Positions 172 to 55,613 of a stretch of DNA of 64,000 nucleotides are shown here, one piece after another. The DNA lies in the NCBI GenBank assembly GCA_051362555.1, contig CM120641.1, forward strand, positions 7,936,001-8,000,000. Direction: 5' to 3'. The DNA is from Lingula anatina (Eukaryota; Animalia; Brachiopoda). A model generated the notes under the pieces. That model worked only from the letters and a program-made list of their open reading frames with translations, was not told the origin of the DNA and did not search any database. Every line of letters starts with the position of its first letter. The stretch's first letter is position 1. A program made the translations under genes and the position numbers.

Positions 172-892
172 AAGATATCAGTTTGCACACAGTAGTATAT
201 AACTATAGTGGCATTTTATTAGTGAACTATAATTTTTTGCATGCCAGTGTCTGTGACTGACCAAAAGGAAGCAGATGTACTTATGATGATACACTTAATA
301 ATATTCCTTTAACACACTTAAGTCGTACTGTAAAAAGGCTTTCACCATTTTTTTTAGATAGAAATTAGTAGTTAATGCACCATATAACTGTACTTATTAA
401 CAGCGGGTTGACTTATAGCAACTAGCATGTGTGTTTCTTAGTAATCTGATAGTAAATATGTGCGGTAGCAGGTGCTGTACTAAATATTCAATGAAGCATA
501 TCCTGTTAACTTCACGCTTTATTAAATTCAGGTGTATGCTGCAGCAATATACTGGCCATGAAATGATGAAAGGTTAAATTCCTTCTCAGATCTCTCTCTC
601 TCTAGCATGCTTTATATTTTTGCCAATTAGCTGAATAACACTGCTATAAAAAGAAAATTTGATTTGATGAAACATTAATAAAAGTGAAATTATTGACCCA
701 AAGCAATGTTTTTATGCTGTAGTCAAAAGGGAGAAAAATGGTAGAGGTTACATTTTAACCCTTGGCCAAATTGCCACTGGCTTGTCATTTCATGGTCAGC
801 TAATTTGGTGTGTGTCTTAATGCTCATGTTGTATGTTTTCTGTTTGATATAATTTTTTCTTGTACTTTTTCATTTTGCACCTGCCATTTTAG

Positions 893-1011
893 ATACCTTC
901 CCCAACTAATGTCAGTGTAAGTATAATGTATTTGGTATTGCCATCTTATTATTATTTTGGTCTTTCTTTCTTGTTTTATATTAAATGATATTTGCACTGC
1001 CAGTCAATTCT

Positions 1012-1043
<32 letters not shown>

Positions 1044-4000
1044 CCTTCCCCCCTCTCTCCCTTTTTTCAATGTTAGGTATTCTTTTTCCTTCTCTTTTAC
1101 AGTTCTTCTGACCAATCTTCCTAGGTGTTTGGCTTAAAAATTATTTTGTCCTACTGTATCCACCGTCCCCAACCTCATCTTTTCATTGTTCTTTTTTCCT
1201 TCCCCCTCTTTTGTAGCTCTGCCTCTCACCAAGCTGTCAACCTATATTGTCCTACCAGAGCCTCCTCTCTTATTTCTTAAACTGAATTTATATTTGTTTC
1301 ACAAAGTCATGCAATATGACTATTTATTTCCTTATCCATCCATCTCTCTTTTGCAATTTTCCCTGTGTGATTGTAATATTCGCATTTATTTGGCCTTTGA
1401 GCATGCTCAGTGTGTATTTTGTAACCTATTGATCATTTTTTGCATAGTGATTGTTATGCTTTCAAAGTTAGATGATTGAGTTTTCACTTGTAGTTTTGTC
1501 GTGGTCTTGATTTCTCTGCATGCTAACAGTCATTGTGACATGTAGTGTTGAATGTATCTTGCACTTAAAAAACATTTCCTTGTAAGTTAAGAAAGATTAT
1601 TCCTGCCTGTCTGTGAAATTTGTTCTGTCACCTTTGTCAAACATGATACCCACTGGATATTGGTCATAAAATGTTTGTGATGACTTTGTATGTGTGTTGT
1701 TTTTTTTCTTCTGTTACCTAGAAACATGGAACCACCTTAAAGAGCCCAAAGCCAGTGAAACTAAATGCGGAGGTAATGTGAGATTGCACTGGAAGCTGTA
1801 TAGTTGTGTGGCATGTTATGTTTTCAGAAGTGTTTAGTTTGAACCCTGAGCTCACTGTGATCTATACTGAAGTTGGTTGAAATATAAAATTTGCTGATGT
1901 ACTTCTCAGTTTAATGGTCACTAGGACTTGTAGACCTTAAAAACCCAAGTCTGACTCAAAATTTATTAGTCCAAAGGTAAATTTTGTGAAAATTGAAAGT
2001 TTATCTAAAAATGATGGTTTTAACTGTTATTTAACTAGGTTCTTAATATTGAAAAGTTCATTTATTATTAGTTTGCAGCCAGTAGCCATATCAATTGCCC
2101 AGGACTGATGACTAATGTTTCAAACTTTATAAAAAAGATAAATATAAAACACATTCGTGGTGACTATAGTTCAGTATTAACTACTAATTGAAGAAAGGTA
2201 AGTGTCTACGTGACAGAGAGTCCTTGTCAACTTTTGTGTATAGTAAAATTATTATTATGTTGAAATGATACAGTTAAATAAGGCTAAAAGTTGAACATAA
2301 AACATGGACATACTGTTAAAATCAGTTCTGCTTATTTTAACCAACTTCATTTAATATCCCCAGGTACTTAATTGTTTTTAGTGTAGCATAGCTGTGCTAG
2401 CTTTACTAATATTGAGATTGGTTTTGCAGTATGATTTTACAACCAGTGTTCACAACAGGACTGAGTTAGACTTGGACTAGTGTAGCTGATGTCACAAGAT
2501 TGCTAATTATTAGGCTTTAAAGCTGTTTAGGTTTAAAGCCCTATACCACATGGCTGTTGTGATGTATGTTATGAATTATGCTAGACTAGTTTCTGTCTAA
2601 TTTAGTCATGTGAACAGGATCCTAGTTATGATTGCTGTACTCTGTATGCACAAATGGCCAGAAGCTTATTTATGTACTGAAGATAAAAATTTAGCTTTGT
2701 GAACTTCATAAGGTTACCTTATTTGTTAATAGGCTCTGTTGGCTTAAAATTTTATGTGCCACTTAGACTTCATTTACTGATCACATTTGCTAGTGAATTG
2801 CAAGAAGTCTGTTGCATATTTTGTTTTAGGATGTCTTTGATTGAGGCTCTTCTCTCTGCTCTTATATTTGCTTTTGCTTCCTGAATATTGTATATCTGAG
2901 ATGTTTGTTTCAGTAATCATATAGTATGAGAACCCACACTTTGAAATATACACACAATATTGTTACAATTTTGCATTTTCTTCTCCACTGGATGAATTTT
3001 AAAATGAAAAAGAAATTATATTAAGATTTTGGGGCAAAGTAAAAAATCAAGACATATTTCAGTTTGAGCAAAAGGAAACCCAAGTTTTTTTTTTTTTTGT
3101 TTGTGGTATTTCTTGGGGTTTTATGAATTGTATAGTAGTAGGTATCTGAAATATTTATTTTTACCAAAGATACAATGTTTAAAAATTGTTTACATGATAT
3201 GTAAACATTAAGTAAACACATTGGACTGAGAATTTTTTTTTCAGTTTAACTAGAAATCTCTTTGAGAATTTTTATGTGGTTGGGTGTAGTAGTTAGTTGT
3301 AAGTGTGAGTGTACATGGGTGAAAGTTTCTGCATTATGCTGGATTTCCAGATTGTCAGTCTTCATTTGTTGCCCTGGACCTGTCAGGAGGCCCCTGTCCT
3401 TCGGCTACATTTTTAGGATTATCACTTTCTTACAACTTTCACCCATGGAGTGTATCTTAGGCACATTGCCTGTCTAATCTGCCTGCTGGTCTGGCCACCT
3501 CTATTGAGTTAAATTGCTGTGATTAGGTAAAATGTTATGGATGGCAAGAAATTGTGATCACAGTTTATGCTGAGTTCAGTGTAATCCATCAGACCTGGAC
3601 TGGGAATGTGCCTTTAGATCTAGACAGTTGTATGTAGTAAGAGTCCTGTATTGCTATTCTGAATTGAGTATGGTAGTCCTGAAGTAAGTAAGGACACCAA
3701 TTTCATGAAAATGGAAAAAGGATTACGTCCTTTCAAGCTAGACAACTATTCCAGTTAAATATTTTTTCGGAAGTAACACACTTTGTTGTAGCTTTAATGC
3801 TAGAAAAACATTTTAATACTTCATATGCTGGTTTAGAATAAGATAAGAGTGGATGAGGAATATGCTGAAACAATTCTATAGAATAGACTAATTTAATACA
3901 CATCCCTAAAATAATAAATCCAGAAAAAGCATTCCTTTCAAGCCTAACAATAATAACAGTTTAATTTTCTTTCTTTCATAAGAAGTTAATTTTGTTGTAG

Positions 4001-24736: not shown

Positions 24737-24885
24737 AACTGACTTTCCTGCCTGTCAGCCTTGCATTAGCAATATAGCAGCATTTATTTCAGAGGATATT
24801 GAGTATACAATTTATAAATAATGTTTAATATATGAGCAGAGCGACATGTGAAGCCAAGGATGACAGTCTTATTGTGGAAATCATT

Positions 24886-27401
24886 TATCACGGCGGGTTT
24901 GGGGATCAGATCCACCGCGACATGGTCCAAGAATAAATAAGCAAGACTTAGAATATATTTCCACAAAGTACGGTTTATTCCTGGTTGAGAGCTGGGACCT
25001 CCAGTCAGCTTGTTCAGCTGTCTGGTGTGGCCACGTCCAGTCTTCCCTTCTCAGAGAATACATACAAGTTATATAGCCTATTTGAACAAAGAACAATTAA
25101 CAATGAACTAAATTACAGGTAGGAGGATGACTTATGATTAAATTATAATTAAAGAGCATGGTCGGAGACGTCTGGCTATACTAACAGAGAGACCACTGTC
25201 TGACCATCTCCTTTGAAGTTAAATGATACATCTGACCCATTAATTTTATAATAATACAGTTGTGATAGATCTCCCTTGGTTGGCAAAATTTGTGCTTCAA
25301 ATTTTAAAATTAAACAATATTTAAATGATATATCTTATTCAGTATCATGTACTCAAACATAGTTTGTAGAACTTAGTCTGAACTTAATGCAACAAAGATT
25401 ACATATATATATGCAAATGTTACACTTTACTCACTACATGTGCTGCATTACATATTTCGCTTACAACATGAATTTAAAATGTGTCTGTCTCCCTATAGGA
25501 TCAGTTGCAGGCAGCAACATTGTAGCCTTGCAGACTTGAACCTCTTTCTGCATTGCCCCTTCTATCGGTATGCTACATGTACGTGCCCTTACATTCGCCT
25601 GTCAACAAACACTACTTCAGCACCAACATATCTACTTATCCTTTCAAACAAAATATGTCACTCTAAAACATTTTGTAGATAACAGCAGTCATATTCATGG
25701 AACAATGTAAGTTTACATTTTCATAAAAATTATTACATAAGTTCTTAGACTAGTCTATCTGAAACAAGTTAAATTTACACAGATACAACACATATCAAAA
25801 TTTTAGTGCAAAAGTTGAGCATAGACAAACAATATAATTAAAAATACAAATATGAGTAAGAAGTTATTACAGTGTTTAACTAAGTATGTCCCTGCTCTCA
25901 CCCGTGTGGCTCTGAAGGTGGAGAATAGGAGAAATAAAGGCTTGACCAGCTTCTCAACTAAAGCCAGCTAGAAAAAATAGGCCTACAGGTCAAAAGAGAA
26001 GATTTAAGAAGAGAGAGACCACACCAGGTTTAAACAAGAACTTATCAGTTTCTCATTAAACAAGCCAAGATTTAATAATTGTTATAAAGATGTCTTTTGC
26101 CTTTTCCTCTTTGATCAGAGTTTCTGTGATTTCCTCGTTGTTTGTGCCCCAATTCTTTGTTCAGTTTTTGGATTTTCTTTTGCAACAATTAATTTTCATC
26201 ATAAATTTCACAATATAGTTTGGCATTGTTCTTTGCAGTGTTGAAAGTTATAAGATATATATGTATGATGTCATCTATTGTTTTGTCCTTTTTAAATTTC
26301 AAGGTGTTGTCTATCACAAGGGTGCCAAGTCCATGATTTATTATAACATTGCTGAATCTTTTCAGATCTTCTTCAGATTTGCACACTGTTTCTTCTAACA
26401 TATTTATCCTCGATTCTCTTTTTGAAATTGTGCTTTCCAAACTCTGCATGGTTTTTAGGTTCTGGTCCAACTGTGATTCTTTCCTTTGGGCCTCTTTAGT
26501 AAGTTTATGGCACTCACCTTGTAATAGTTGCAGTTCTGTTTTGGAGGTTGCAGATAAGTCTATAACATCAGCCAAATTTTCACACTCTTTGAATGGTAAA
26601 TCGGTCCGGATATTGATTTTTGAAATACTATTTTCTTCTGTCACAGGTAACTTACTTGTGTCTACGGTTTCTTCAGATAAAGGAACAGCCCTTCTCATTT
26701 CTCTCTCTTCCAGCCATTTTTGTTTTCTCTGTTTATATCTCCTTATTCTAGATGGTGTCTTTTTCTTCTCTACTTTCATTGCTGAGAGGGTGTTGACCTC
26801 ACTGCTCATCATTTTCGGTGTCCTTGGGTCTGTTTTCCACTTCAGGGTAATGAATAGTTCTTCACCCACCTTACTCACGCTGTACATTGATGGTACTTGG
26901 TCGACTTCCAGTAGAATATTAAAAATATCTGCTGGTAAGATATTTTGTCTCCCAAGTCTTTCCATCTTTGTTCTGTGAGGTACTGGGGAAGTTGAAATGC
27001 CCACAGGTTCTCCAACAGTTATCACGGCGGGTTTGGGGATCAGATCCACCGCGACATGGTCCAAGAATAAATAAGCAAGACTTAGAATATATTTCCACAA
27101 AGTCCGGTTTATTCCTGGTTGAGAGCTGGGACCTCCAGTCAGCTTGTTCAGCTGTCTGGTGTGGCCACGTCCAGTCTTCCCTTCTCAGAGAATACATACA
27201 AGTTATATAGCCTATTTGAACAAAGAACAATTAACAATGAACTAAATTACAGGTAGGAGGATGACTTATGATTAAATTATAATTAAAGAGCATGGTCGGA
27301 GACGTCTGGCTATACTAACAGAGAGACCACTGTCTGACCATCTCCTTTGAAGTTAAATGATACATCTGACCCATTAATTTTATAATAATACAGTTGTGAT
27401 A
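24886..27401 (-). mobile_element. Young non-autonomous LTR retroelement: 382-bp LTRs (24886-25267 and 27020-27401), CATT target-site duplication
   Basis: Direct repeats in which I found one mismatch (agtAcgg vs agtCcgg); each LTR is bounded by TATCAC...GTGATA; CATT at 24882-24885 and 27402-27405; PBS-like tgttggagaacctgtgggcat next to the 5' LTR and purine tract aagggaga next to the 3' LTR on the minus strand. Confidence 0.9.
26189..26965 (-). CDS. Intronless 258-aa ORF inside the LTR element (basic KKKTPSRIRR motif plus coiled coil), function unknown
   Basis: First ATG at 26965 (MERLGRQ...), just downstream of the PBS-like site; the ORF-track start at 27100 is a TTG inside the LTR; no CCHC knuckle, protease, RT or integrase motif visible. 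Confidence 0.7.
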   Translation of the reverse strand: MERLGRQNILPADIFNILLEVDQVPSMYSVSKVGEELFITLKWKTDPRTPKMMSSEVNTLSAMKVEKKKTPSRIRRYKQRKQKWLEEREMRRAVPLSEETVDTSKLPVTEENSISKINIRTDLPFKECENLADVIDLSATSKTELQLLQGECHKLTKEAQRKESQLDQNLKTMQSLESTISKRESRINMLEETVCKSEEDLKRFSNVIINHGLGTLVIDNTLKFKKDKTIDDIIHIYLITFNTAKNNAKLYCEIYDEN

Positions 27402-28968
27402 CATTTTAGAGATTTTGACTTATAGGGATGCCTTGGACCTTAGCAAAATGTGGGACTGTGGTTTAAACTGTTTTTCGCAATGAAAAATACGGTGACCTGG
27501 CTAAACCGAGTTTCCTGCAGTGAGAAAGGCAGCACTTTTATATCGCTATGACATCAGTTAGGTGAACTGATTTAGGAAAGTTGATCTTTTCATATTTAAA
27601 CAAACTAAAATGTCAGAAATAAAGTTAAGAAAGCAGGGATGAATATGCATTATATAAATTAAACTGGATGGAACAATTCAGCCTTTTTACATTTGATAAC
27701 ATCCGGAACAAAACACTGCAAGAACAATCAAAATGACAATTGTAAAATGAAACCGTATGTATGCAAGGAAAACTCATCTTAACACAACAGTTACAGCTTC
27801 AAATATATATATATTGATTGTTAAATTGTCATTTTTATTATTGTTGCCCAGTTTTTAAAAAGATATATGCAATGCACAAGCAAATGTGAAAACTAGTTTG
27901 CCAACAAAAATGGCAATCTCACAGCCTGTTCAGTAACAAGCAATTATGTATTACAAATATTGTATTTTTTTTATTTGTTGTGAAGCTTTTCACAGCTGAC
28001 TATTTTTGGAGTTTTTTGACAAAATGGTTGCACAATTGGAAAAAAAATGCCATTGACTTTTTTGCTGTTATGTATGTATTCATTTGGGAAAGTAAGTGGA
28101 ATAAAATTGTTTTAGTTAACTGCTTTGATTTTATCTTAAATAATTTTAGATTCACAAAATTTTGTAGGTGCAACATTTTTTATTAGAATGATAGAAAATT
28201 TATTTGCTCTTTTCAGCAAAGGAAATTTGGGTATAAATTGTGTTCATGGTGCTCGGCACATCACATATAACCAGTTCTTTCCCATATGTGTTAGTCCAGA
28301 TGTGAACTTGTGAATGTCTCAAGTCATTCAATATTAATTTTTGTCTTATATAAAGCAGTTTTCAGTTCATCAATCATTAATGTTGGACATCAATCATTAA
28401 TGTAGAAGTCCAAATTTAAGGATCTTTATTTCTTTTATAATGTCTTAACTCACACACATACTTCTAACATTACTGCCACACGGATACAGCAGAAATAACA
28501 GGATTAATTAAAAATTAACAATTTTTATTTGTAACTCAACCAATCATTTGCTCTCTACAAATGTGCTCAAATAAATAAAAGCATTCCATTTTTTCTGCAG
28601 ACTTATTATATCTTGGCATGATAACTGGTTATACAGTGTTTGGAGGGGGGGGGGGGGGGATGCTGAATGCTGTAGTAAATCTATGCCTTATTAGCTAGAA
28701 AGATGGTGCAAGTTGCAACCTTACAAATACATTTTAGCTTATGATGGACTAGACAGTAAAATCAGGTTCCTTAAGCCAAATATAACAGGCATGCCAGACT
28801 TATGACTCTGCTAACCTCTACCAGGGCCACAGTTATTATTGTGGACATTTTTTGCTGAGGCGACTAAGAGCCAAAATGACTGTCTATTTATCTATAGACA
28901 CATCTGTGAATATCTGTGGAAAATCAATCTGTCGCCCTGGTATAGGGTATGACTCTGCAGTGTTTCCT

Positions 28969-30139
28969 TCAATTGTTACCTTTTTTGTGACTAAAGTAAA
29001 CTACAAAGAATGGTCTGTGTCTCTTCCTGTTGTGTTTTTCATCTGTTACAAGATGAACTTGTCTTGCAGCTCTAGCAGCTTGAACCCCAGGGCGTATGCT
29101 ATTCACTCTAACTTCTAGTCCCTTGAAGAGGTGTGGTTGATGTACAAATAAAGATACAGCTTCCGTGGCATCAAACTGCAGCCATTCAGAGGTATGGATG
29201 TTCACCAATCTGAAAAGAAAAAAAAATCTTGTAAAGATGGCTCCTTAAGTTAAATATTTTACATATTTTGAAAAAGAAAAAAGCACATTACTAGATAAAC
29301 GAGTGATGGGATGTCATTTTTCCTAGCTTTGTGGCATTATGATTTTGAAATGACATCTAAAAAGGAAGACAAAATCCATCCACATTTACTTAATAAAGTA
29401 TGTATAAAATATACTGCAACAGTGCAAAAAGCTCAGAAGTGTAATTTAAGATCAAAATATTACTGTAATAAATTATATTACCTTGAATCAAGTGGCATGA
29501 CTGCTTTATCCTTGATGAGGTATAAACTCACTCTGGCTTGTCGAGGGAACATTCTTCTTTCACTTGGCCTCGAACCATATTTGTATACTTTTAAGGCAGC
29601 ATATAATATTTGTGAATGTCGAAATATCCTACGCTTTACTTGCATTTTGATTCTGTGATGAATTGAAGTAGTGTATACTACTTTAGTGTGAATACCTGAA
29701 ATTATGAATTTTCATTTTTAGTTATTAGCTTATGGAATTTCTAACATATCTTTACTCCGAGTTCAGTGAATTCTTGACTCTTTGTAAAAACAATTATTTT
29801 AATTATACAATAAGTTTATACTTAAGTGTTTCATTAAGAAAGAGAAAAATCTTAAAGGTGACATAAAATGTGATCTTTTCCAATGTTTTGCAGTATGGTA
29901 AAATCACCTGTGGGATAACTGGTGAAAGAATTCCTAAAAACTTGAGCAAGACTGGGAACTGCACCATCATTCAGCATCATGTCAGCGTTTGAATTCTGGT
30001 TGTTCTCTTCCCCAGAATATTCTTCCATCTCACTGGTAGATGGGGTAGACTGATCCAAAGGCAGAGCAAAGCTATTTGAAATTGTAACAGCACATCGCAC
30101 AGCAAGCAGAAATACTTTCCAAACAGTATCAGTGTCCAT
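28969..30139 (-). CDS. Lefty-like TGF-beta-family pro-region protein, 228 aa, apparently without the cystine-knot domain. Exons 30139-29908, 29695-29482, 29209-28969
   Basis: Canonical GT/AG sites give one open frame (232+214+241 nt) with an N-terminal signal-like peptide and VPSLAQVFR, YAALKVYK, ARVSLYLI, LDSRLVNIHTSEWLQFDATEAV, LEVRVNSIRPGVQAARAARQVH, RPFFVVY, collinear with Lefty pro-region motifs. Confidence 0.8.
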
Positions 30140-30175: not shown

Positions 30176-30250
30176 CTTTATATATATTCCATCATGCAGT
30201 AATCAGACTGTCTGACTGCTTGACAATTGTTTATAATTACCAAGTCTGAC
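30176..30250 (-). promoter_or_regulatory. TATA box and clustered Smad-binding-like motifs upstream of the Lefty-like gene
   Basis: Minus-strand TATATATAAA about 40 nt before the ATG; CAGAC 30204-30208, GTCTG 30210-30214 and 30244-30248. Confidence 0.45.
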
Positions 30251-30506: not shown

Positions 30507-31854
30507 TCAACAAAATATATCATCTTCAACTGAATTTTTTCCTGGGGCTTCCTCTGTTTGATTTATAGAGTTTGAAAGAACTAATTCATTTCTCCCATTT
30601 AGATTTTCATATCCATTGTTTGGAGAGGAGCCCGAGGAGCTGCCAAGTCTTTGTAACCTTGCCTGCTGGACTTGTTGTCTTTTAATGCCTGGACTTATTT
30701 TGGAGTGAACTGAAATTCTGATTGATAAAGAAGCCTGTGATATTTCTTCATCCTGAGATTCTGCTGAGAAAAGACCTCTTCTTCTCAAATCCTCAGGAGT
30801 TGCTGGAACAGTCTGGTCACCTGAATTTCAAAATGTGTTTGATAAAGTTAAATATAATCATTAGGCATAAGGCATTATTAAAATCTTAAAATATATGTGA
30901 TTGAATTTTTTCTTTCAATATGAATTGCATACAGAATCACAGCATGTTAGCAGACAAAAGTTACAAATTTACCTTCATTTGTGGGCTTTCCTTTTCCTCT
31001 TTTGAGTTTTGAATCTGCTTGCTGCATGCTTGTAATTCCATTTCCTACAAATTGTAAGACATTTAGCATAAGCTGTACAATGTCATAAAATTAACAAATA
31101 AAAGTGTTGAAAAAAGAAAATGAAAATTTCAAAATAAATTTCATTCACTGAGAGAACATTAACCTACTTTTGTAGGCTTTAATCTTCTCCTATTCCTTTA
31201 TCTATATTTTTGCCAAAGAGGCACATACAGATTTTTTGGATAAGTACTACAAAAAAGCTGATGCATGCTAAGGAAATCTGTTTTTAACAGAATGAACTGT
31301 TGTTTTCAGTCATGTTCCTAAGCTGTATGTGTGAGATGAAATGATAAACACGTGTGTTAAGCCCCCTTTACACTGAACGGCGTCCTTTCTGCGTCCAGCA
31401 GTACGGCCCCATTTGAGAGTTAAAAAAATTATAATACTTTACGGCCGACAACTGGCCGATCATTGAGCATTCATTCTGATACAAAATCGATGCTTGTGTC
31501 TCCTTATTAAGACCACAGGGATGCCAAATTTCATGGTCGCAGAAAGGACGCCGTCCAGTGTAAAGGGGGTATTACCAGATGAGGAGTGGTGGTGAAAGGG
31601 GTAGTTCATAGGTATGCTTACTCATGGTAATAAGTGGTGTGACAGTCATTCTCTGCTGATGCAGAACTTCATTCATGCTTGGTGTTCTTGGGGCAGATGC
31701 TCTTTCCACTGAATTTAAACCATAGCACATATTTCACAGGTAGATATAATAAAACAAAAAATAGAAATTCTAAACATTCACAGCAAAAAGTTTCATAAAA
31801 ATGAATGAAATATAAAAGCTTTCTTTTACAGAAGAAACAAAACCATATTCTCTT

Positions 31855-31889
<35 letters not shown>

Positions 31890-32129
31890 AAGTATTAAAT
31901 GTACGAAAATATTTCAGGATAAATTCTGTAATGATTAAACTCTGCTAACCTTACACTAATATCTAAACTTTTATGAAATAACATTAAACTACTTCATTTT
32001 ACCTGGAATTTTAGAATATCCCTGGTTATTATTCTGTATTGTGGGAACTACCCCAAATGTTGGATGTACTTGATACTGTTCACCAAGACTTGGTGTGCCA
32101 GGAACACAGTGATAAGGAGAATTTGTCAT
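30507..32129 (-). CDS. Small spliced gene of unknown function (exons about 32130-32003, 31708-31576, 31044-30973, 30821-30507); reading frame ambiguous
   Basis: Four AG/GT-bounded segments of higher GC; last two splice to MELQACSKQ...VPATPEDLRRRGLFSAESQDEEISQ...DDIFC; probable 5' exon with donor near 32272 and CCAAT-like motif near 32520. Confidence 0.45.
31361..31570. mobile_element. MITE-like element with about 30-bp terminal inverted repeats
   Basis: ccccctttacactgaacggcgtcctttctgcg / cgcagaaaggacgccgtccagtgtaaaggggg. Confidence 0.8.
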
Positions 32130-35100
32130 TCTTAAAAACAGAAATATGTAAACTCCGTAGACAAATAAGCAAAACCTGATCAAAATTTAGGATTTATGCA
32201 ATCTAATCTTCAGCTGTGTACATTCTTTAGACTTGCAAGAATAAGCTTTATGGGACGAAGACCTACTGCATACCTGCTCAACTGCTCTCACAACATGAAA
32301 AGTGTCCCAAGGGGAATCGCAATTAATACCAACATGAAAACTTCTGGAAATGAAATATAGAAGAAGGTCTCTACTTTAAGAAAAAAAAGCAAGAGAACGG
32401 CTATGACAGCAAAAATCAACTTGGCGGGCAACATTTCTATTCACTTGCGATCGTCGTCTGGTGAATTCGGATCAGATAAACTTTGGTCCAATAGATATCG
32501 CTGTTACTATCAAATGACTGATTGGTCAAAAGAAAAGTAGGTCATTTGCCCTGACAAAATAGATGCCAAAATGAGATCCTGATAATATTGCCTAAGAAAA
32601 TGACACTTTGTTCAAAACTATTTTCAAAGGACGCCCAAATAATCAACTGAATTTTATAACACAAATTTGACTTTTTCAGTGTGGAACCGGCTATGGGGAG
32701 GGGGAGGGGTGGGGTAGTAATCACAATTCAAGGGAAATAAAATCACCAATTCAAAAATCACATTTAATTTACATCTCACTGATAATGCACGTCGAAAATC
32801 CTCAAAATCACAAATCACCAGGTATACTGACTGTTTTACGAAGGGTGGAGAATAAAAGGGCGCATCCACGAGTCATGTGAATGGGGTGCTTCACGTTTCA
32901 CGCATCTCGGGAAACAAAAAAGCCGACAAAAAAGTGGTTTTCGCGGGTAGCGAAAAAACCCTCGCTATTAGCGCGACCGCAAATGTAGTATATTAAAATC
33001 ATTCTCATGTCGTACCCGCGTTTTAATGCATCTTATTATGCAAAAGCGTAAAGGTTAATATACATGTAGGCGCCTCTCTCTCTATCGACACACAGATATC
33101 TCACTTTCTCATGTTCTAAATCATGTTTCACATCGTCATTGAGAAAACTACATGTAAGCGACTTCTCTACTGTTGTACTGTCATAAATGCCTTTGACATA
33201 TATCGACTGGATTACTGTACTACAAAAATAGTCTACTGTACTAATCTCCGCAAGAAAAAAGTCAAACGTCTACAGCACATTCAAAAATTGGCATCACCGC
33301 TCGTGTCTTTGTACCCGCACACCTAGTGACAGCTAGTCACATCACACCTATCCTCAAACAACTTCACTGAAGGTCGGTGTGTGTTAGACGGAATTTAATC
33401 TTCCCAAATTTTCTAAGATTTTATTTACAAAAATATTAATATAATAAAAAAGAATAAAAATGGCCCAGTTATGATAAATAGTTGCACAAAAAACAGTACT
33501 TGACGAACGAAATTGACTGAGTTTACAGACTGATCCCTAGGGAGTAAGTGCGCTAACGCTACGGTACATGCACCAAACGTTATTGCTATTCATTGAATTT
33601 CTAATATAACTAGAATTATAAAGCTTTGTAAAAACATAACATTATATAGTATTACACAAAAATCAAACTGTTAAAATTAGAATGCTCTCAAAAGATGGCC
33701 CTCGAGCATTTACTGGTATTCTTCAGACGTCGTACAATGATAAACATAAAAAAGAAAAAAGAAAAAAAAAAAAAAAAGAAAAAAAGACCAGTATCAGTTT
33801 CAAAACTTTTTTACAGTGCAGAGCTGTTAAACATGGAACGCAGATCCAGTTAAAAATACAGACATAAACATAATGAAATAAATATTTTTGCTTATGTGTT
33901 AATCAATTGATGCATAAATGTGTTAATTTTAATGCTTTTTTATTACTTTCGTTCATTGCAATGTCTTACTGTGCACAGCTGGTGGTAATTTCTTTCATAT
34001 ATGTAAATATTAAAAATATGTACCCCTGAAATCTAGTGACAAAATACAATCCTGTTGGCAAAACCAGACTTCAAAGTTATATCAGACCAAGGGGATTTTG
34101 AATATTTCATACTACAAAGATATATCTTATTATAAATAAGATATATCAATGATATCATTTTGTCATTTTTTTGTTATTGATTTATTGTAGCTTCTTTCAT
34201 GTATAATGATGGACATAACCTTTTCTTTTATTTCCTGTATGACTCCCAATCACTTGTCAATTTAGTTATTTGTAAGCATGTGTTAAATCAACATTTATTC
34301 TTAACAACTTTTTTCATGAAAAACCATGCTAAGTTTTGTAAGAACATTTACCCCAAAACAGTAAAATAGATATTTGATAAGCACTTTTATGCATGTATGA
34401 TAAAGACCATAACTATTGCACTATTATTCAGAAAGATTTGCATTATAAATCTTATAATTTCACTTTTTCCTTTTCATTTGCCATTTACACCTGGTTTATG
34501 ATACAAGTATTCCATATTCCATATCTTTCCCAGACTGGAGACGCATTTCAAACGATCCTTTAGGATATTAAATTAATAATTATTATGCATATTCTGGTTA
34601 TTCACAAAAATTATATACCTTAAAATGTATCTTTTTTTATATTTTCAAAAAGTTACATTGATATTATTAATAAGAGCTATTTTTCCATTTCATTTCCATC
34701 TGTGTATTTCTTACCAGCTTATGTTTGGCACTGATAAAATTCCACAAAAACAGGGTGCCAGTATTAAATGAATGGATAAAAGCAATATGTCTAACAAGTG
34801 AACATCCTTTTAACGACAATGCATGGAGCATATGTCTTGAATAACCTAAAATCATTTGTAAATAATCCGTGTTTTTAACACAAGGTACATTACACACTTT
34901 TTCAATAATGAAATTACTAATCCTGGTCAAAGACGAATTATTTTACAAATATAAGCAGTAATCCTGTTGGCGAAACCAGATTTCTAAACTTTTATTTAAC
35001 AAAGTTATTATATCAGACCAAGGGAATGTTGAATATTTCACAGTACAAAGATATATCTTATATGAATGTATGAATAAATGTATCCATTAAAATAGGATGT

Positions 35101-40886: not shown

Positions 40887-43800
40887 CATATAATAACCTG
40901 AGAATACTTTTGTGGGCAACATAAAATGAATCAATTTTGAGCAAATAACATAGGCAGTTTATTGTCTATTTATAGTGTTCAAGGTCTCCCAGATGCAGTG
41001 GCTAGTGCTGCCCAGTGTCCAGCTTTAGACACCCAGTGGATAGAGACCACAACCAAAAAGGCAGCTTTGAAGCTAGAAAAATTAGATACAGATTTGAAAA
41101 ATTATAAAAGTAATTCAATTAAAGAAAGTATAAGGTAGGTGAAGTTACCAACTTGATATAAATTTGAAACAGTATGGTTTAGGAATATTCCAACCATTAA
41201 AAATCTCTGCCACTCAAAGGACCTATAATAATTATTGATAATAGTTAGATATTTTCCATCCCAAACACAATCTTATTTTGTGTTCACATATGTTTCTTGT
41301 ACTGAATGCCTATCACTGCTGTTTTTCCTAAGGTAGGATTTCCACTGGCTGTTGTTGAAGTTATAATTACAAGTGGAAGTCTAGATAACTCTTTTGTTTA
41401 TGTATAGCATGAAAAAATACTGCTTCTGTAAATAAACTTTTATTTTAAAATTCACAGTACGGACTGTTAACCTTGTTTTTACAGACGAGGTCATGATGAC
41501 CTAGGTGATCACTACCTGGACATGGGAGACCTCAGTAATGCACTCAAATGCTATTCTCGGGCAAGAGACTACTGTACCAGTGCACGACATGTGGTCAACA
41601 TGTGTCTTAATGTTATCAAGGTATGGGGTCACATGTTCAAGAACTTATTATTTGAGTCTCCCTCCCCCCCCCCCACTTTTTTTGCCATATCTGGACAACT
41701 GAATGTTAGCATAGATGACTTAAGTTAGAATACCATTAATATTTAGTCTCACTCTCATAAAGATTCCCTGATGTTCCACTCACAGGAATATAGTTTTTCA
41801 CTGATTTGTCAAGTTATGCTTGAGTCACTATATAAAATATTTGGAATGTATTTATGGAGTTATATGAGACTGAACGTACCCAATATAGCTTATTAGTGTA
41901 TTTTATCATGCATACTTATTTTTGAGTGATTTTGATACTCTTTTTATGTACAGACACAAATGTGTCTGTACATATAGCCGTCATCTGCGTCTGTCGTTGC
42001 CGTCGTCGCCGTCGCCGTGCACTTTTACCGATAACACGATAAGTGGAAAACTGTTTTTTCTTTTTGTTTGAAACTTACAGAACTGATGAATATTCATAAT
42101 ACGCAGGTCACGTTCGAAAATCAGCATGATCGGGTCACTTATAGGGAATTTATGCTGTTTTTTCACTTTTTTCAGCATATATGCAGCACCGATAACACAA
42201 TAAGTGGAAAACCATTTTACCTTTTGGCTTGAAACTTACAGAACTGATGAATATTCATAATACGCAGGTCACGTTCGAAAATCAGCATGATCGGGTCACT
42301 TATAGGGAATTTATGCTATTTTTTCTCTATTTTCAGCATAAATACAGCACCGATAACACGATAAGTGGAAAAGCATTTTACCTTTTGGCTTGAAACTTAC
42401 AGAACTGATGAATATTCATAATACGCAGGTCAAGTTCGAAAATCAGCACGATCGGGTCACTTATAGGGAATTTATGCTGTTTTTTCACTTTTTTCAGTAT
42501 ATATGCAACACTGATAACACAATATAAGAAAGACAGATTGGCCAATTGTCATTATACTCACAGGAGGGGCCAATCTTACTAAAACGCAGGTTGAGTTTGA
42601 AAATCAGCATAATCAGTCCATTATTTTAGAAGTTATGCTGTTTTTTCACATTTCCTTACATTCAATTCTTAGGCATGTTAACAGTCTCATTATTGAACTA
42701 ATAAGATACATAAAAGTGTTTGTTTGACATTTCCTGCATCTTTACAACATTGTTAGTTGATTTTGTAAAAATGATGGTAAACTTGTTATCATGTATTGTG
42801 TAATAAAGTGTCAAAAATGGAAATAAACTCATATCATTGCAGTTTGTCAGATGCATTCATCCACTATGTTCAGAATCTCAGAATGGAGGAAGTTGGACAT
42901 TTAACACTGTTCTATTGATACTTTTCCCATCTCATCAATTTTCTTAGTTGGTCATATAAAAATGGCAGTAAACTGTTTATTTTGTTTTATGTTAAAAAAG
43001 TGTTAAAAAGGGAAATAAACCCATTTCAGAACAGTGCTGTCTTGTTTACATTTTGGCATTTTCATGATGTGACTTTGAAGTTCCATGGGCCTGAAGACTT
43101 TTGCTTGTTACATTTTCTGAATAACCATGATACTAATATTTTATAATTAAAAATTGATGGTCATTATGCTGTAAAACATTATGTAATATTGCATCAAAAT
43201 TTGAAGAAACCCCTATTTTGGGCACTGCTCCCATGATGACCATTTAAGGAAAATCATGTCACTTACTGTTCTCACACTTACAGGAAAGAAACATGGGACT
43301 AAAATACAGCTTCAGTAGGCAATGCAGTCTGTTTGGTAAATTTTTCTGGCAATTAAACAGTTTTTTGTGAAAATTTAATTTTTCACATATTGGCATTTCC
43401 AAGGTGTGACTTAAAACCTCCACGGGCTTGAAGACTCATGCTAGTCACATTTTGTGAAAATCCATGACACTTATATTTTATTATTAAAAATCGATGGTCA
43501 TTATGCTGTTAAGCATTATGTAATGTTGCATCAAAATAAAAGAAAACACAATTTTTGGTGCTGCTGCCTTGATGACCATTATGGGAAAACCGTGTTACTT
43601 ATGACTGTCAAACTTTCAAAAAAGAAACACAGGACTAAAATGCAGCCTGAGTTAGAAAAGCAGTCTAATTGGCTTCTTTTTCTGGAAGTTATACATTTTA
43701 GTGTAATATTCATTATCTTTTTGGCATATTCATTGTGGGACTCGGAGCTCCCAAGGACATGAAGCCAAATGGTAATCATATTTTCTACATGTCCATCCTA

Positions 43801-48816: not shown

Positions 48817-51800
48817 TATTGTACCACCAGCATTAGCGCTGGCGGTACACATGGTTTTAGTCCCGTCCGGTCCGTTCCGCCGGCTCCGCCGGCTCCTGCG
48901 GCTCCGCCGGCTCCGCCGGCTCCGCCGGCTCCGCCGCCATGTTACCGTTACCGCTTCTCCTCCTAGACGGTAAGGGCCCCCATACCCATCTCTTGGATTT
49001 AGGTCACCTATAATCTCAACTCGTTCCACGTAAAATTTGGGCCTTGTCGGTATTGGGGTCTAGGTGTGGCACTCATTGCAATGCACCCTTGTCCAAAAAT
49101 GGCAAAATTAAATGCTAATTATCTACCCTACGGAAGGAATTATGGGAAAAATTTCTACAGACGGCTTTCCAAAAGTCATATGTGTAGATTTCAAATATGC
49201 CCTTGGATTTGACCTTTGACCTTTATTTCAAGGTCAAACGGGCAAAAATTTTCAAAAAAATGAATTTTTTTACGAAAAAAAATTTATTTGCGCTGTTATT
49301 CAGACACCACACAGACTTAACCAATAATATTATTGGAAGATGTTACCCTTCAGGTCATCTTTCATATCCGTAAATTTGGGGTCAATCGGTGCATTTTCAC
49401 GGGAGTAGCGGCCATAAGATACCGAAACTGAAAACTGTCTCTAATTCAGGAACCGTTAATGCTAGAGACCCATTCTTTTTTGCATTTTGTAGAGCATGTA
49501 AAGCCCAACACTGGAGGTGGTCTCCGGTTTTTTGTATTCCATACGGTTTTCGAGTTACGCTGTATCAAAAAGTACATATTGGTGGTGAAAGCAAAATGTG
49601 CAGTACGGTAATGGATAATAAATTTTGAACTCTGGAAAAATAAAACATAAGGCTTGGCAAAGCAGACAACTTGTGGTCAAAAATGACATTATTTCATCAA
49701 ATTTGAACTTCTGGAACTTCAGAGCACCTCCCATTTCAAGAATTTTTACCAAAATGACCTTTTCTTTATTTTAATTAATTTTTTCTGTAGGAAATTTATG
49801 GCACATTAAGGTAACTCCGAAATTATAACATTTAGTCCCTTATATCTCCAAAACTGGCAGAGATAGGTCCATAGTTACTATTGAAGTTGAATAGGAAGTC
49901 ATATACTGGCAATCTTACTGTGACCTTGAAATTGACCTTTGACCTACTTTTCACCATAAATTGAACTTTGCAAATTTTGCTTCCCTTTTATCTCCAAAAC
50001 TGGCAGAGATAGGTCCATAGTTACTATTGAAGTTGAATAGGAAGTCATATACTGGCAATCTAAATGTGACCTTGAAATTGACCTTTGACCTACTTTTCAC
50101 CATGAACTGAACTTTGGAAATTTTGCTTCCCTTTTATCTCCAAAACTAGCAGAGATAGGTCCATAGTTACTATTGAAGTTGAATAGGAAGTCATATACTG
50201 GCAATCTAAATGTGACCTTAAAATTGACCTTTGACCTTCTTTTCACCATGAACTGAACTCTGCTAATTTCTTTCTCTTTTAACTCCAAACTTGGCAGAGA
50301 TAGGTCCATAGTTACTGTTGAAGTTGAATAGGAAGTCATATACTGGCAATCTAAATGTGACCTTGAAATTGACCTTTGACCTACTTTTTATCATGAATTG
50401 AACTTTGCAAATTTTGGTTCCCTTTTATCCCCAAAACTGGCAGAAATAAATCCATAGTTACTATTGAACTTGAATAGGAAGTCATATACTGGCAATCTTA
50501 CTGTGACCTTGAAATTGACCTTTGACCTTCTTTTCATCATGAACTGAACTTTGCAAATTTTGCTTCCCTTTTATCTCCAAAGTTACGCTGTATCAAAAAG
50601 TACATTTTGGTGGTTAAAGCAAAATGTGCAGTACGGTAATGGATAATAAATTTTGAACTCCGGAAAAATAAAACATAAGACTTGGCAAAGCAGGCAACTT
50701 GTGGTCGAAAATGACATTATTTCATCAAATTTGAACATCTGGAACTTCAGAGCACCTCCCATTTCAAGAATTTTTACCAAAATGACCTTTTCTTTATGGC
50801 ACATTATGGTAACTCCAAAATTATAACATTTAGTCCCTTATATCTCCAAAACTGGCAGAGATAAGTCCATAGTTACTATTGAAGTTGAATAGGAAGTCAT
50901 GTACTGGCAATCTTACTGTGACCTTGAAATTGACCTTTGACCTACTTTTCACCATGAACTGAACTTTGCAAATTTTGCTTCCCTTTTATCTCCAAAACTG
51001 GCAGAGATAGGTTCATAGTTACTATTGAAGTTGAATAGGAAGTCATATACTGGCAATCTAAATGTGACCTTAAAATTGACCTTTGACCTACTTTTCACCA
51101 TGAACTGAACTCTGCTAATTTCTTTCTCTTTTAACTCCAAACCTGGCAGAGATAGGTCCATAGTTACTGTTGAAGTTGAATAGGAAGTCATATACTGGCA
51201 ATCTAAATGTGACCTTGAAATTGACCTTTGACCTACTTTTTATCATGAATTGAACTTTGCAAATTTTGCTTCCCTTTTATCTCCAAAACTGGCAGAGATA
51301 GGTCCATAGTTACTTTTGAACTTGAATAGGAAGTCATATACTGGCAATCTAAATGTGACCTTGAAATTGACCTTTGACCTACTTTTTATCATGAATTGAA
51401 CTTTGCAAATTTTGGTTCCCTTTTATTTCCAAAACTAGCAAGATAGGTCCATAGTTACTATTGAAGTTGAATAGGAAGTCATATACTGGCAATCTAAGTG
51501 TGACCTTGAAATTGACCTTTGACCTACTTATAATCATGAACTGAACTCTGCTAATTTCTTTCTCTTTTAACTCCAAACCTGGCAGAGATAGGTCCATAGT
51601 TACTATTGAAGTTGAATAGGAAGTCATATACTGGCAATTTACTGTGACCTTGAAATTGACCTTTGACCTACCTTACGATGAACTTAACTTTGATTGTACC
51701 ATTTTAAGTTATATATATTTTTTGCGTATTTTGAAAATTCTTGTTGATTGCATTTTTATAGCTTGTCAAGCATAAGACTGGTGGCTGTGTCCCTTATTTT

Positions 51801-51886: not shown

Positions 51887-52763
51887 GTTGTTATGTTTAA
51901 ATACAAAAGACTTTTTGTGTGCATTCCAACATTTCCATTTGTTGAAATCCACCTTGCTTTTGATATAAACTATTGACATTGGATATGAAATGATTATTTG
52001 GTATGTGTTCCAGAGATCCAGGTTTCAGTGTGCTGTCACTTACTGCAAAATTATGGAAGTATGATGGGAGGTCAAACCTAACATCACGACAATGACAATA
52101 AAGCAATGCTCCAAATTGAGGTGTCAGAAAAGTGTCTAAATTCAAAATTGTGAAGGCAACTCCCCTGATAGCATGTCCAGTGCAGACTGTTTTTTTCTCT
52201 GGTAAAAAATTGAAGGTGTTTTGAGTACATATTATTTGATATCAACAAAAATGAAAAACATAAACTTGATGTACAAAGAGCATTTTTAGTTTAATTTTTA
52301 AAAAATATTAAGTATTTGCTTTTTTTCCCACCCAAAATTAAAAAAATTCCTTAAGGGCTATTTTATCCTAATAAATCGTTGCTCAAGCCATTCCTGCACT
52401 TGGTTGGGTTTGAAGTTTTATTCTTTCATAAAAGCTTTGCAGGATATATATGTAAACTTAGGGCAACAGTGAAGTGTTTTTCCCACACATGCAGCATAGC
52501 CCCCTTTAAATGCTGTATGTCATTGATAGTGATTTTATCTCATTGATTAGATTTTGATGTATAATTTTCAAATGTTTAAAAGGGATAATTTGTTTTAAAA
52601 CATTGAAATGCAAGGTCACGATCTTTGAAATACAAATTTTATGTTCCCTGCCAACAGCTACCACTAGTCTTTAAGCCAAAATCAGCAGATTTTGTGATAA
52701 AAAATACACCCAGTACACTTTATAAAATTATATTTCCGCTTAGAAAAATGGAACAGATGTCAA

Positions 52764-55613
52764 TTTTTTATGTACAGACACAGATGTGTCTGTACATATT
52801 GCCATCACCTGCGTCTGTCGTCGCCGTCGCCGATGGCGATGCCGATGCCGATGCCGTCGCCGTGCACTTTCCTTGTAAACACGATAAGTGGAAGGCAGTT
52901 TTACTTTTTGGCTTTATATTTACAGAGCTGATGAATATTCATAAAACGCAGGTCAAGTTCGAAAATCAGCATGATCGGGCCATTATTGTAGAAGTTATGC
53001 TGTTTTTTCACTTTTCAGCATATATGCAACCTTGTAAACACATTTTAAGGAAAACCGTTAGGCCTGTTGTCATGACACTCACAGGAATAATCAATCTTAC
53101 TAAAACGCAGGTCAAGTTCGAAAATCAGCATGATCGGGCCACTATTTTAGTAGTTATGCGGTTTTTTCATTGTTCAGCATATATGCAACACTGTAAACAT
53201 AATATAAGAAAAACAGTAAGCCCAATTGTCATTAAACTCACAGGAATGGTCAGTCTTACTAGAACGCAGGTTGAGTTCGAAAATCAGCATAATCGGGGCA
53301 TTATTTTAGAAGTGAGGCTGTTTTTTCACATTTCCTCAGAATTCCTCAGATTTAATTCTTAGGCATGTTAATAGCCTTATTATTTAAGTAATAAGATACG
53401 TAAAAGTGTTTGTTTGACATTTCCTGCATCTTTACAACATTGTTAGTTGATTATGTAAAAATGATGGTAAACTTGTTATCGTGTATTGTGTAATAAAGTG
53501 TCAAAAATGGAAATAAACTCATATCATTGCAGTTTGTCAGATTCAATCATTCACTATGTTCAGAATCTCAGAATGGAAGAAATTGGACATTTAACACTGT
53601 TCTATTGATATTTTTCACATCTCATCAATTTTCTTAGTTGATCTTATAAAAATGGCAGTAACCTATTAATTTTGTTTTATGTTAAAAAAGTGTTAAAAAT
53701 GGAAATAAACCCATTTCAATATTTCAGAACAGTGCAGTCTTGTTTACATTTTGGCATTTTGAAGGTGTGACTTTGAAGTTCCATCGGCCTAAAAACCTTT
53801 GTTAGTCACGTTTACTATTTGTCCATGATACTAATATTTTATTATTAAAAATTGATGATCATTATGCTGTTAAACATTATGTAATATTGCATCAAAATTT
53901 GAAAAAAACCTATTTTGGGCACTGCTCCCATGATGACCATTTAAGAAAAACCATGTCACTTACTGTTCTCAAACAGTACAGTTAATATGTACAGATGTGT
54001 CTGTACATATTGCCATCACCTGCGTCTGTCGTCGCTGTTGTTGCCGTCACTGTCGCTGTCGCCGGCGCCATGCACTTTCATTGTAAACATGATAAGTGGA
54101 AGGCAGTTTTACTTTTTGGCTGTATATTTACAGAGCTGATGAATATTCATAAAATGCAGGTCAAGTTTGAAAATCAGCATGATCGGGCCACTATTTTAGT
54201 AGTTATGCTTTTTTTTTCACTTTTCAGCATATATGCAACACTGTAAACACAATATAAGAAAAACAGATAGGCCAATTGTCATTAAACTCACAGGAGTGGT
54301 CATTCCTGCTAAAACGCAGGTTGGGTTCAAAAATCAGCATAATCGGACCATTATTTTAAAGAAATGCAGTTTTTTCACATTTCCTCAGATTTAATTCTTA
54401 GGCATGTAAACAGTTTCATTATTGAACTAATAAGATACGTAAAAGTGTTTGTTTGGCATTTCCTGCAATTTTACAACATTATTAGTTGATTATGTAAAAA
54501 TGATGGTAAACTTGTTATCGTGTATTGTGTAATAAAGTTTCAAAAATGGAAATAAACTCATATCATTGCAGTTTGTCAGATTCAATCATTCACTATGTTC
54601 AGAATCTCAGAATGGAAGAGATTGGACATTTAACACTGCTCTGTTGATATTTTTCCCATCTCATCAATTTTCTTAGTTTATCATATAAAAACGGCAGAAA
54701 ACTGATAATTTTGTTTTATGTAAAAAATTGTTAAAAATGGAAAAAAAAAAAACATTTCAGAACAGTGCTGTCTCGTTTACATTTTGGCATTTTCAAGTTG
54801 TGACTTTGAAGTTCCATGGGCCTGAAGACCTTTGCTAGTCACATTTTCTGAATATCCATAATACTAATATTTTATTATTAAAGTTGATGGTCATTATGCT
54901 GTTAAACATTATGTAATATTGCATCAAAATTTGAAAAAAAAAAAACTATTTTGGGCACTGCTCCCAGGATGACCATTTAAGAAAAACCATGTCATTTACT
55001 GTTCTCAAACTTACAGGAAAGAAACATGGGACTAAAATACAGCTTCAGTAGGAAATACAGTCTGTTTGGTAATTCTTGCTGCCAGTTAAACAGTTATTTT
55101 GTGAAACTTTAATTTTTCACATATTGGCATTTTCAAGGTGTGACTTTGAAGTTCCACGGGCTTGAAGACCCATGCTAGTCACATTTTCTGAAAATCCATG
55201 ATACGTATATTTTATTATTAAAATTGAGTTATTATGCTGTTAACCATTATGTAATATTGCATCAGAATAGAAGAAAACACAATTTTGGGTGCTGCTGCCA
55301 TGATGACCATTATGGGAAAACCATGTTACTTATGATTGCCAAACTTTCAAAAAAGAAATACAGGACTAAAATGCAGTCTGAGTTGGAAAAGCAGTCTAAG
55401 GAACTTCTTTTTCTGGAAGTTATACATTTTCACAGTGTAAACTTGTCACATATTTTAATTACATTGGTATTACCTGTTGAGGATAATTAAAATTTGATGT
55501 TGAATTTGCAGTTTAACATAATGTATTTTTGCATCAGAATTGACAGTAGCCTATTTTGTGCATAGTTATTTCCTGTTTTTTGTCTGTACATTTGACAGCT
55601 TTGCTGCCTTGTT
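52764..55613 (+). mobile_element. Second family B Helentron-type element with an internal head-to-tail restart at about 53987
   Basis: Same 5' end (atgtacagacacagatgtgtctgtacat), tandem units and 3' end (tgtctgtacatttgacagctttgctgccttgtt) as 41941-44820. Confidence 0.75.

Follow-up and report, generated by a model that had tools for sequence, protein, structure and literature searches.

A 64,000-nucleotide stretch of the genome of the brachiopod Lingula anatina (contig CM120641.1; hereafter the window) carries on its minus strand a gene for a 228-amino-acid protein which is best classed as derived from Lefty but not as a canonical Lefty ligand, because the cystine knot, a defining feature of such a ligand, is absent and the arm domain of the pro-region is kept. 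It is very probable that this is a real gene of Lefty identity whose short form is conserved in no fewer than three species, a brachiopod and two nemerteans. The function of the Lingula protein is a more tentative matter: with a confidence just short of even we propose that it is an extracellular, matrix-bound damper of Nodal/TGF-beta-family signalling.

Gene structure and predicted protein

The minus-strand exons 30139-29908, 29695-29482 and 29209-28969 join into 687 nt that encode 228 amino acids and a stop codon, with no internal stops and with GT-AG at both junctions (phases 1 and 2). The uninterrupted three-exon gene described in an earlier note on this DNA is thus borne out, as is the TATA box placed upstream of it, which corresponds to the TATA-like run at 30186-30177.

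30177..30186, minus strand: TATA-like run about 40 nt 5' of the ATG, a putative promoter element read from the sequence
29908..30139, minus strand: exon 1, with a signal-like N-terminus (about residues 1-25), an acidic disordered linker and then the Lefty-like start
29696..29907, minus strand: intron 1, 212 nt, phase 1, with position and phase as in L001 and in the full-length Lefty gene L004
29482..29695, minus strand: exon 2, covering the first half of the beta-sandwich of the arm (Lefty profile E 2e-6 and predicted model)
29210..29481, minus strand: intron 2, 272 nt, phase 2 within the Arg codon of DSR, likewise in L001 and L004
28969..29209, minus strand: exon 3, remaining half of the arm, including the Lefty-type helix and the last strand, then the stop (PF00688 27.8 bits; Lefty profile E 4e-16; helix motif)

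GC content is 40% in the exons and 25-26% in the introns. Exon 1 encodes neither a straitjacket nor a furin site, and a basic furin site before the arm was looked for in the Lingula protein and not found. The only Cys of the 228 residues is residue 16, in the signal region. The signal-like N-terminus, also claimed earlier, is called from hydropathy (up to 2.2 over 11 residues) and a helix at residues 3-22 of the predicted model only, and on these grounds the protein is predicted to be secreted.

The Pfam profile TGFb_propeptide (PF00688), which the earlier note had named as a check, matches residues 100-220 with 47.6 bits (E 2.2e-12) against a cut-off of 25.8; scanned exon by exon, exon 3 reaches 27.8 bits and exons 1 and 2 give no match. 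For the window's 228-residue protein (P0001), PF00688 is the only match at E<=0.01 and CBM96 (PF24517) is not matched. Since 227 of the 228 residues are identical to the Lingula anatina record LOC106172357 (XP_013408468.1, 228 aa), the host is taken to be the brachiopod Lingula, a spiralian, a case that the earlier note had allowed for.

Short relatives in nemerteans and other sources

Word-index searches for relatives returned the Lingula record LOC106172357 only. An exhaustive phmmer scan of 1.84 billion representatives gave 14 matches at E<=0.001, consisting of the query's own record, three whole short proteins, three last-exon fragments, six knot-bearing proteins and one unrelated repeat protein. 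The Pfam profile of the cystine knot (PF00019) is found in all six knot-bearing matches and in none of the six short ones, of which the three whole proteins carry PF00688 alone. P0013, tried as a relative, was rejected as an Ig-repeat protein.

The best relative after the query's own record is from Lineus longissimus (229 aa, 34%, E 3.5e-17), followed here by a protein of 201 aa from Tubulanus polymorphus (E 9.7e-13) and by P0004, a short protein of 283 aa that is present on two contigs. Lineus and Tubulanus are nemerteans of two different classes, and their gene models lie on contigs of 29 and 32 Mb. The Tubulanus protein has the automatic NCBI name BMP2-like, and its model lacks a signal-like N-terminus. 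In addition, the DNA sequence L001 holds an independent, whole, three-exon knot-less gene for 270 aa (727-3506, plus strand) with introns in phase 1 and phase 2 as in Lingula; its last exon is P0014, no GT occurs in the stretch from the last strand to the stop, and the sequence extends only 1.4 kb beyond that stop. Together with Lingula this makes five whole short forms, among which those of Lineus, Tubulanus and P0004 are known as proteins and not as DNA. Same-length relatives in other species, which the earlier note had proposed to look for, have thus been found.

In all five whole short forms the stop lies 11-16 residues past the Pro of the last strand, so that the same strand is the last in each; in Lineus and P0004 the stop is at Pro+11, ahead of the position of intron 3 in L004. 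A furin site before the arm is present in the four other whole short forms and in 7/7 full-length Leftys. The loss of this site noted earlier is therefore correct for Lingula, but it is specific to Lingula and no property of the short forms as such. A profile search for a spiralian full-length Lefty found none among the five proteins that it returned, a blank that means little because the search also missed P0002, a row of its own alignment. The genes flanking the Lingula gene in the window have no neighbour in common with those of L001 or L004. The sequences allow a single origin of the short forms.

Affinity to Lefty

The six knot-bearing phmmer matches are all of Lefty type, five of them being named Lefty and the one from Ciona 'TGF-beta superfamily ligand'. 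With a profile built from eight full-length deuterostome Leftys, a set chosen by likeness to the query, the five whole short forms score 94-139 bits, Lingula being the lowest at 94, and the pro-region of BMP5 scores 58. The reverse profile, made from short forms only, gives 81-140 bits for 7/7 full-length Leftys and 50 for BMP5; among solved pro-domains it gives BMP10 38 (maximum 37.5), TGF-beta2 34, BMP9 28, TGF-beta3 25 and TGF-beta1 <=16 bits, and the solved pro-domains of myostatin and activin are not listed at E<=1. A phmmer search of P0001 against the PDB reached a best E of 0.17.

A helix motif of Lefty type after the seventh strand is present in 5/5 short and 6/7 full-length rows (it is missed in the amphioxus row) and not in BMP5. 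Introns 1 and 2 match those of L004 in position and phase, in a comparison with this one gene that covers Lefty and no other subfamily. L004 (6621-11402, plus strand; also found as L002 and L003) is a whole four-exon Lefty gene of tunicate-like character for 415 aa on metagenome contigs, and its protein is sister to the Ciona protein with a support of 100/99. The earlier claim that the intron in the DSR codon is shared with Lefty thus stands, in phase 2 in both genes, as does the claimed affinity to Lefty, for which the scores of both profiles, the Lefty type of all knot-bearing matches and the shared introns speak.

In a 13-row tree (LG+G4) the five short forms lie on one side of a branch with a support of 91/89 (unstarred), with Amia BMP5 (P0033) as the only outgroup; a 12-row tree under a mixture model, made without L001 and L004, resolves Lineus with Tubulanus and no other short forms. 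The longest branch among the short forms, 1.1, is that of Lingula. Atlas structure searches ranked Lefty clusters first both times, and so did the Atlas feature search with the whole protein (0.97). With residues 58-228, the feature search gave an arthropod propeptide cluster (0.95), a BMP4 fragment cluster (0.94) and LFTY2 (0.94).

Anatomy, fold and charge of the arm

The short forms match the Lefty profile at positions 67-249 only, that is from the furin site to the last strand of the arm, and leave positions 1-66 and 255-355 unmatched. Positions 1-66 correspond to the straitjacket, which is unmatched in 5/5 whole short forms and matched in 7/7 full-length Leftys; in the Lingula model, residues 21-66 have a pLDDT<50. 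According to the available part of a study of solved pro-complexes (10.1101/2021.06.24.449816), the straitjacket, consisting of alpha1, latency lasso and alpha2, encircles the growth factor and makes up much of the ligand interface. That the ligand and the part wrapping it are both missing is the outcome to be expected of long selection on a protein without a knot.

The gene had been described earlier as encoding the pro-region only. The arm is indeed kept and the knot absent, but the straitjacket is gone too, and the arm is a part that stays on mature full-length Lefty. Past the first furin site, full-length Leftys leave a peptide of 32-35 kDa, RX[KR]R being absent ahead of the knot in 6/7 of them, and because of this size the 36-40 kDa given for mature Lefty, which binds Cripto better than its precursor does (PMC340941, accessible part), fits arm plus knot. 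The spiralian protein therefore corresponds to the N-terminal part of mature Lefty.

A model predicted from a 24-row alignment (pLDDT 71.7) shows the arm fold over residues 84-225; the model from the single sequence (pLDDT 35.4) was unusable. All top rows of a Foldseek search are TGF-beta-family pro-complexes, and the closest folds to the predicted model are pro-activin A (Z 11.9, rmsd 2.6, 122 residues aligned) and pro-TGF-beta2 (Z 11.0, rmsd 3.0, 126 aligned), followed by chondroitin-sulfate- and alginate-binding modules (Z 9.1, rmsd 3.6, 127 aligned and Z 8.8, rmsd 3.9, 126 aligned, respectively). The net charge of the arm is +8 to +22 in the five short forms, -3 to +4 in five non-tunicate Leftys and +11 and +13 in the tunicates.

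L005-L009, tried as Lefty loci, were rejected as bacterial-type. L008 (5726-10957, plus strand), L009 (6214-9519, plus strand) and L006 (7469-11404, plus strand) encode large bacterial proteins from Chloroflexi MAGs with CBM96/disaggregatase repeats. The CBM96 repeats of L008 and L009 pass the PF00688 cut-off and also score on profiles of the Lefty arm, pointing to a possible distant link of the TGF-beta arm domain to glycan-binding modules. By analogy, glycan binding by the Lingula protein is at most a lead.

A possible role in damping Nodal/TGF-beta signalling

We propose the following course of events, in which every step past secretion is one that we infer. The short form would have arisen once in the spiralian line through loss of the last exon of Lefty, and the straitjacket that wraps the ligand would have decayed thereafter. 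In the relatives, furin would free an arm of about 20 kDa, and Lingula would secrete an uncut form of 23.5 kDa. Sulfated glycans would retain the basic beta-sandwich, and the arm would occupy a surface of a ligand, a pro-ligand or a co-receptor in trans, being itself incapable of signalling through receptors. Given the identity and the conservation of the gene, a role as signalling damper is slightly favoured. Besides the scarcity of reads and the lack of FoxH1-type enrichment described below, two analogies would speak against it: the straitjacket, a large share of the contact with the ligand in solved pro-complexes, is the very part that was lost, and the route taken by vertebrate Lefty is through EGF-CFC, which is reported to be without a left-right role in a gastropod.

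It is also conceivable, albeit rather unlikely, that the knot-less Lefty, though real and conserved, now works outside the Nodal pathway, either as a matrix or glycan-binding protein that is secreted or by another route at the cell. The two parts related to the ligand, knot and straitjacket, are both gone, the arm is strongly basic, its next folds are the chondroitin-sulfate- and alginate-binding modules mentioned above, with which the cross-scoring of CBM96 repeats agrees, and its neighbours in the Atlas include arthropod clusters that have PF00688 without a listed PF00019, one of them named anachronism. However, the short forms have the furin site and the helix motif of Lefty type in common with Leftys that are Nodal antagonists, a likeness in fold shows no function, and P0001 itself has no CBM96 match at E<=0.01.

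Expression and state of the Lingula copy

Four of nine listed RNA runs were examined, 6-30% of each. Three of the four have no reads on the coding exons, and in the fourth (X7) there is one pair, a number below the threshold for listing reads. A single pair with one mate spliced across 29209/29482 accounts exactly for the X7 depths on exons 2 and 3; the best unspliced fit in the grid tried is off by 0.54. The 3' end of the gene has no read coverage in the four runs. FoxH1-type sites, sought with a pattern that we take to be that of FoxH1, are not enriched (23 found, 29 expected). On 27400-28000, reads of runs X7 and X9 are for the most part 90-95% similar to the window despite carrying the same species label, those of X1 and X4 being closer, and the divergence of X7 and X9 is read as a divergent population or a cryptic species.

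The scarcity of reads, in four runs of no given stage, would agree with a family that functions elsewhere and a Lingula copy that is decaying or barely used, as would the longest branch (1.1), the lowest profile score (94 bits), the lost furin site and a repeat that begins 20 nt past the stop. We consider this improbable, since reading frame and splice sites are intact in two versions of the gene that differ in 1/228 residues, the residues of the core and the motif are kept, a TATA-like box is in place and the one read pair is spliced.

Search for a ligand exon

The region downstream of the coding sequence contains the following elements.

28974..28982, minus strand: putative donor-like site of phase 1, lying 8 nt ahead of the stop
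28815..28949, no strand assigned: dispersed repeat beginning 20 nt after the stop, with piled reads that have unrelated loose ends on both sides
28425..28529, minus strand: two AATAAA signals, candidate transcript ends
27405..28583, plus strand: transcribed 3' region of a convergent GST gene (stranded reads in X1 and X4; GST_C Pfam match upstream), which bounds the downstream space

The dispersed repeat occurs in many unrelated transcripts. PF00019 was run against 150 of the 157 minus-strand downstream segments with at least two Cys (2.9-28.8 kb) and matched none of the 150. The knot part of the Lefty profile matched none of 3532 six-frame segments across the whole window, in which the same profile picks out exon 2 (E 2e-6) and exon 3 (E 4e-16). 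Nine knot domains compared with the window by tblastn reached a best E of 0.48; as a control, 6/9 Lefty pro-regions match the gene at E<=0.002. A Cys-motif regex found no knot in the window, and the Cys-rich segment 27628-27798 was rejected as a knot because it matches neither Pfam nor Lefty. Joined to the donor-like site, none of the acceptors at 27405-28978 gives more than 45 codons or more than three Cys among the combinations listed. The lack of a knot exon, claimed earlier for 1.5 kb, hence extends to 29 kb downstream and to all six frames of the window.

These results bear on the suggestion that the gene is an ordinary four-exon Lefty whose last exon has been missed because it is distant, unassembled or unannotated. 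The donor-like site scores 6 of 9, equal to the donor of intron 2, at a chance rate of one per 1.7 kb. Exon 3 of L004, when read through into intron 3, meets a stop 14 codons past the last-strand Pro and so has the same look as a short form. For this reason the last-exon fragments prove no truncation: P0006, P0009 and P0032 are indistinguishable from such a read-through and were left out of the truncation count. The suggestion could further draw on the lack of reads at the 3' end, the 1.4 kb available past the stop of L001 and the fact that Lineus, Tubulanus and P0004 are known as proteins only. Nevertheless, it has little probability. There is no knot in 29 kb downstream and other genes intervene; the donor-like site is in phase 1 at the 11th codon after the last-strand Pro, whereas intron 3 of L004 is in phase 2 at the 13th, so that a last exon, if inherited, would not be read in frame. 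Moreover, L001 lacks a GT at this point, the stops of Lineus and P0004 at Pro+11 precede the intron position, the gene models of Lineus and Tubulanus are on contigs of 29 and 32 Mb, and a missing 3' exon leaves the loss of the straitjacket in 5/5 short forms unexplained.

Least probable is an origin in another TGF-beta subfamily (BMP, myostatin or TGF-beta) with a chance likeness to Lefty, which could appeal to the single tree outgroup, the one source name BMP2-like and the level Atlas feature scores for residues 58-228 (0.95 and 0.94 against 0.94 for LFTY2), but no such protein is among the 14 phmmer matches, the profile scores favour Lefty both ways, the helix motif occurs in 11/12 Lefty-type rows and not in BMP5, introns 1 and 2 are as in L004 and the Atlas structure search ranks Lefty clusters first.

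Comparison with known proteins and earlier reports

The arms of deuterostome Lefty/antivin proteins (amphioxus, hemichordate, starfish, tunicate, lamprey and teleost) are 20-28% identical in alignment A2, and they share with the short forms the Lefty-type helix, introns 1 and 2 and, in the four relatives, the furin site before the arm. In contrast, the short forms have no knot and no straitjacket, have three exons instead of four and are more basic than the non-tunicate arms; Lingula also lacks the furin site. Bacterial CBM96/DNRLRE-type glycan-binding modules have, as far as the models go, a related beta-sandwich and cross-scoring repeats, at 13-21 bits per repeat at best.

Two arthropod Atlas clusters of Anachronism type (feature score 0.95) have PF00688 in 56% and 87% of their members and no listed PF00019. 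Their proteins of 352 and 370 aa are not among the phmmer matches and are likened to the Lingula protein by Atlas score alone; they are possibly another set of ligand-less pro-domain proteins. Drosophila Anachronism is a secreted inhibitor of neuroblast proliferation.

The free pro-domains of the family (latency-associated peptide, myostatin, BMP9/10) have the same jelly-roll fold as that predicted for the arm. They bind the growth factor non-covalently (10.1101/2021.06.24.449816, available part), but they are released from a precursor that also carries the ligand, and the straitjacket is part of them, whereas the Lingula protein has its own gene and consists of the arm alone.

A Lefty of the nemertean Notospermus is reportedly included in the work of Luo et al. 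2018. In the accessible parts of two other papers, Lefty is called a deuterostome innovation (PMC4729200) and lefty is said not to have been found in spiralians (PMC5104510). Elsewhere, again in the parts accessible, the Lefty orthogroup 11821 has 52 deuterostome and three lophotrochozoan members (PMC7535936) and a lefty of Riftia is reported (PMC8789280); these are like the short forms in being lophotrochozoan Lefty homologues and are known here without their domain structure. The proposal in the earlier note that the gene would move the origin of Lefty back must consequently be given up, as Lefty outside the deuterostomes was already published. The word 'lefty' is absent from the text and three supplementary text files of the Lingula genome paper PMC13121700, whose review file gives activins, Gdf15 and Myostatin as TGF-beta-like ligands, and the accessible portions of PMC7017013, PMC4423147 and PMC11292947 hold nothing on a short Lefty. 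Within the literature searched, a scope outside which key papers and supplements lie, there is no report of a knot-less Lefty. Spiralian Lefty as such is already known; it is its domain loss that appears to be new to print.

Because catalogues of TGF-beta-family genes are built on the cystine knot, most surveys miss a conserved member that lacks it. With a natural arm-only Lefty in a brachiopod and two nemertean classes, the part of Lefty that restrains Nodal could readily be identified, and this Lefty is a candidate for a spiralian Nodal regulator. Vertebrate Lefty acts by binding EGF-CFC (PMC340941, accessible part), and EGF-CFC is reported, in the part of PMC9907556 available, to have no role in left-right patterning in a gastropod. 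If the damper role is true, the arm domain would be able to act alone. Tables of the presence and absence of Lefty in protostomes would also need redoing with arm-domain profiles. Going further, spiralians might hold a hidden knot-less Lefty which predates the split of brachiopods and nemerteans, whose arm is the Nodal-restricting unit and which was overlooked by ligand-domain searches, with proteins of Anachronism type as a possible further branch; taken as a whole, this wider picture is unlikely.

Neighbouring sequences in the window

By Pfam, the neighbours in the window are vinculin-family, GST, NUDIX, RPN7-domain, Dus and FTCD genes, presumably with GSTZ1, GPS1 and DUS1L among them. A minus-strand gene at 30507-33000 without a Pfam match in the exons tried ends about 320 nt before the TATA-like box, so that the promoter of the Lefty-like gene would be very short.

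A young LTR-type element at 24882-27404 is inserted in the 3' UTR of the GST gene; its terminal repeats of 389 bp are 99.2% identical, and its minus-strand frame of 331 codons has no Pfam match under E 1.9. In 4/4 runs there are reads that pass directly from the sequence before 24882 to about 27402, and an empty-site allele or removal of the element from the transcript is therefore common. Finally, repeat families with recurring pseudo-frames occupy 41900-42750, 49400-51700 and 52600-54400, in and after the RPN7-domain gene.
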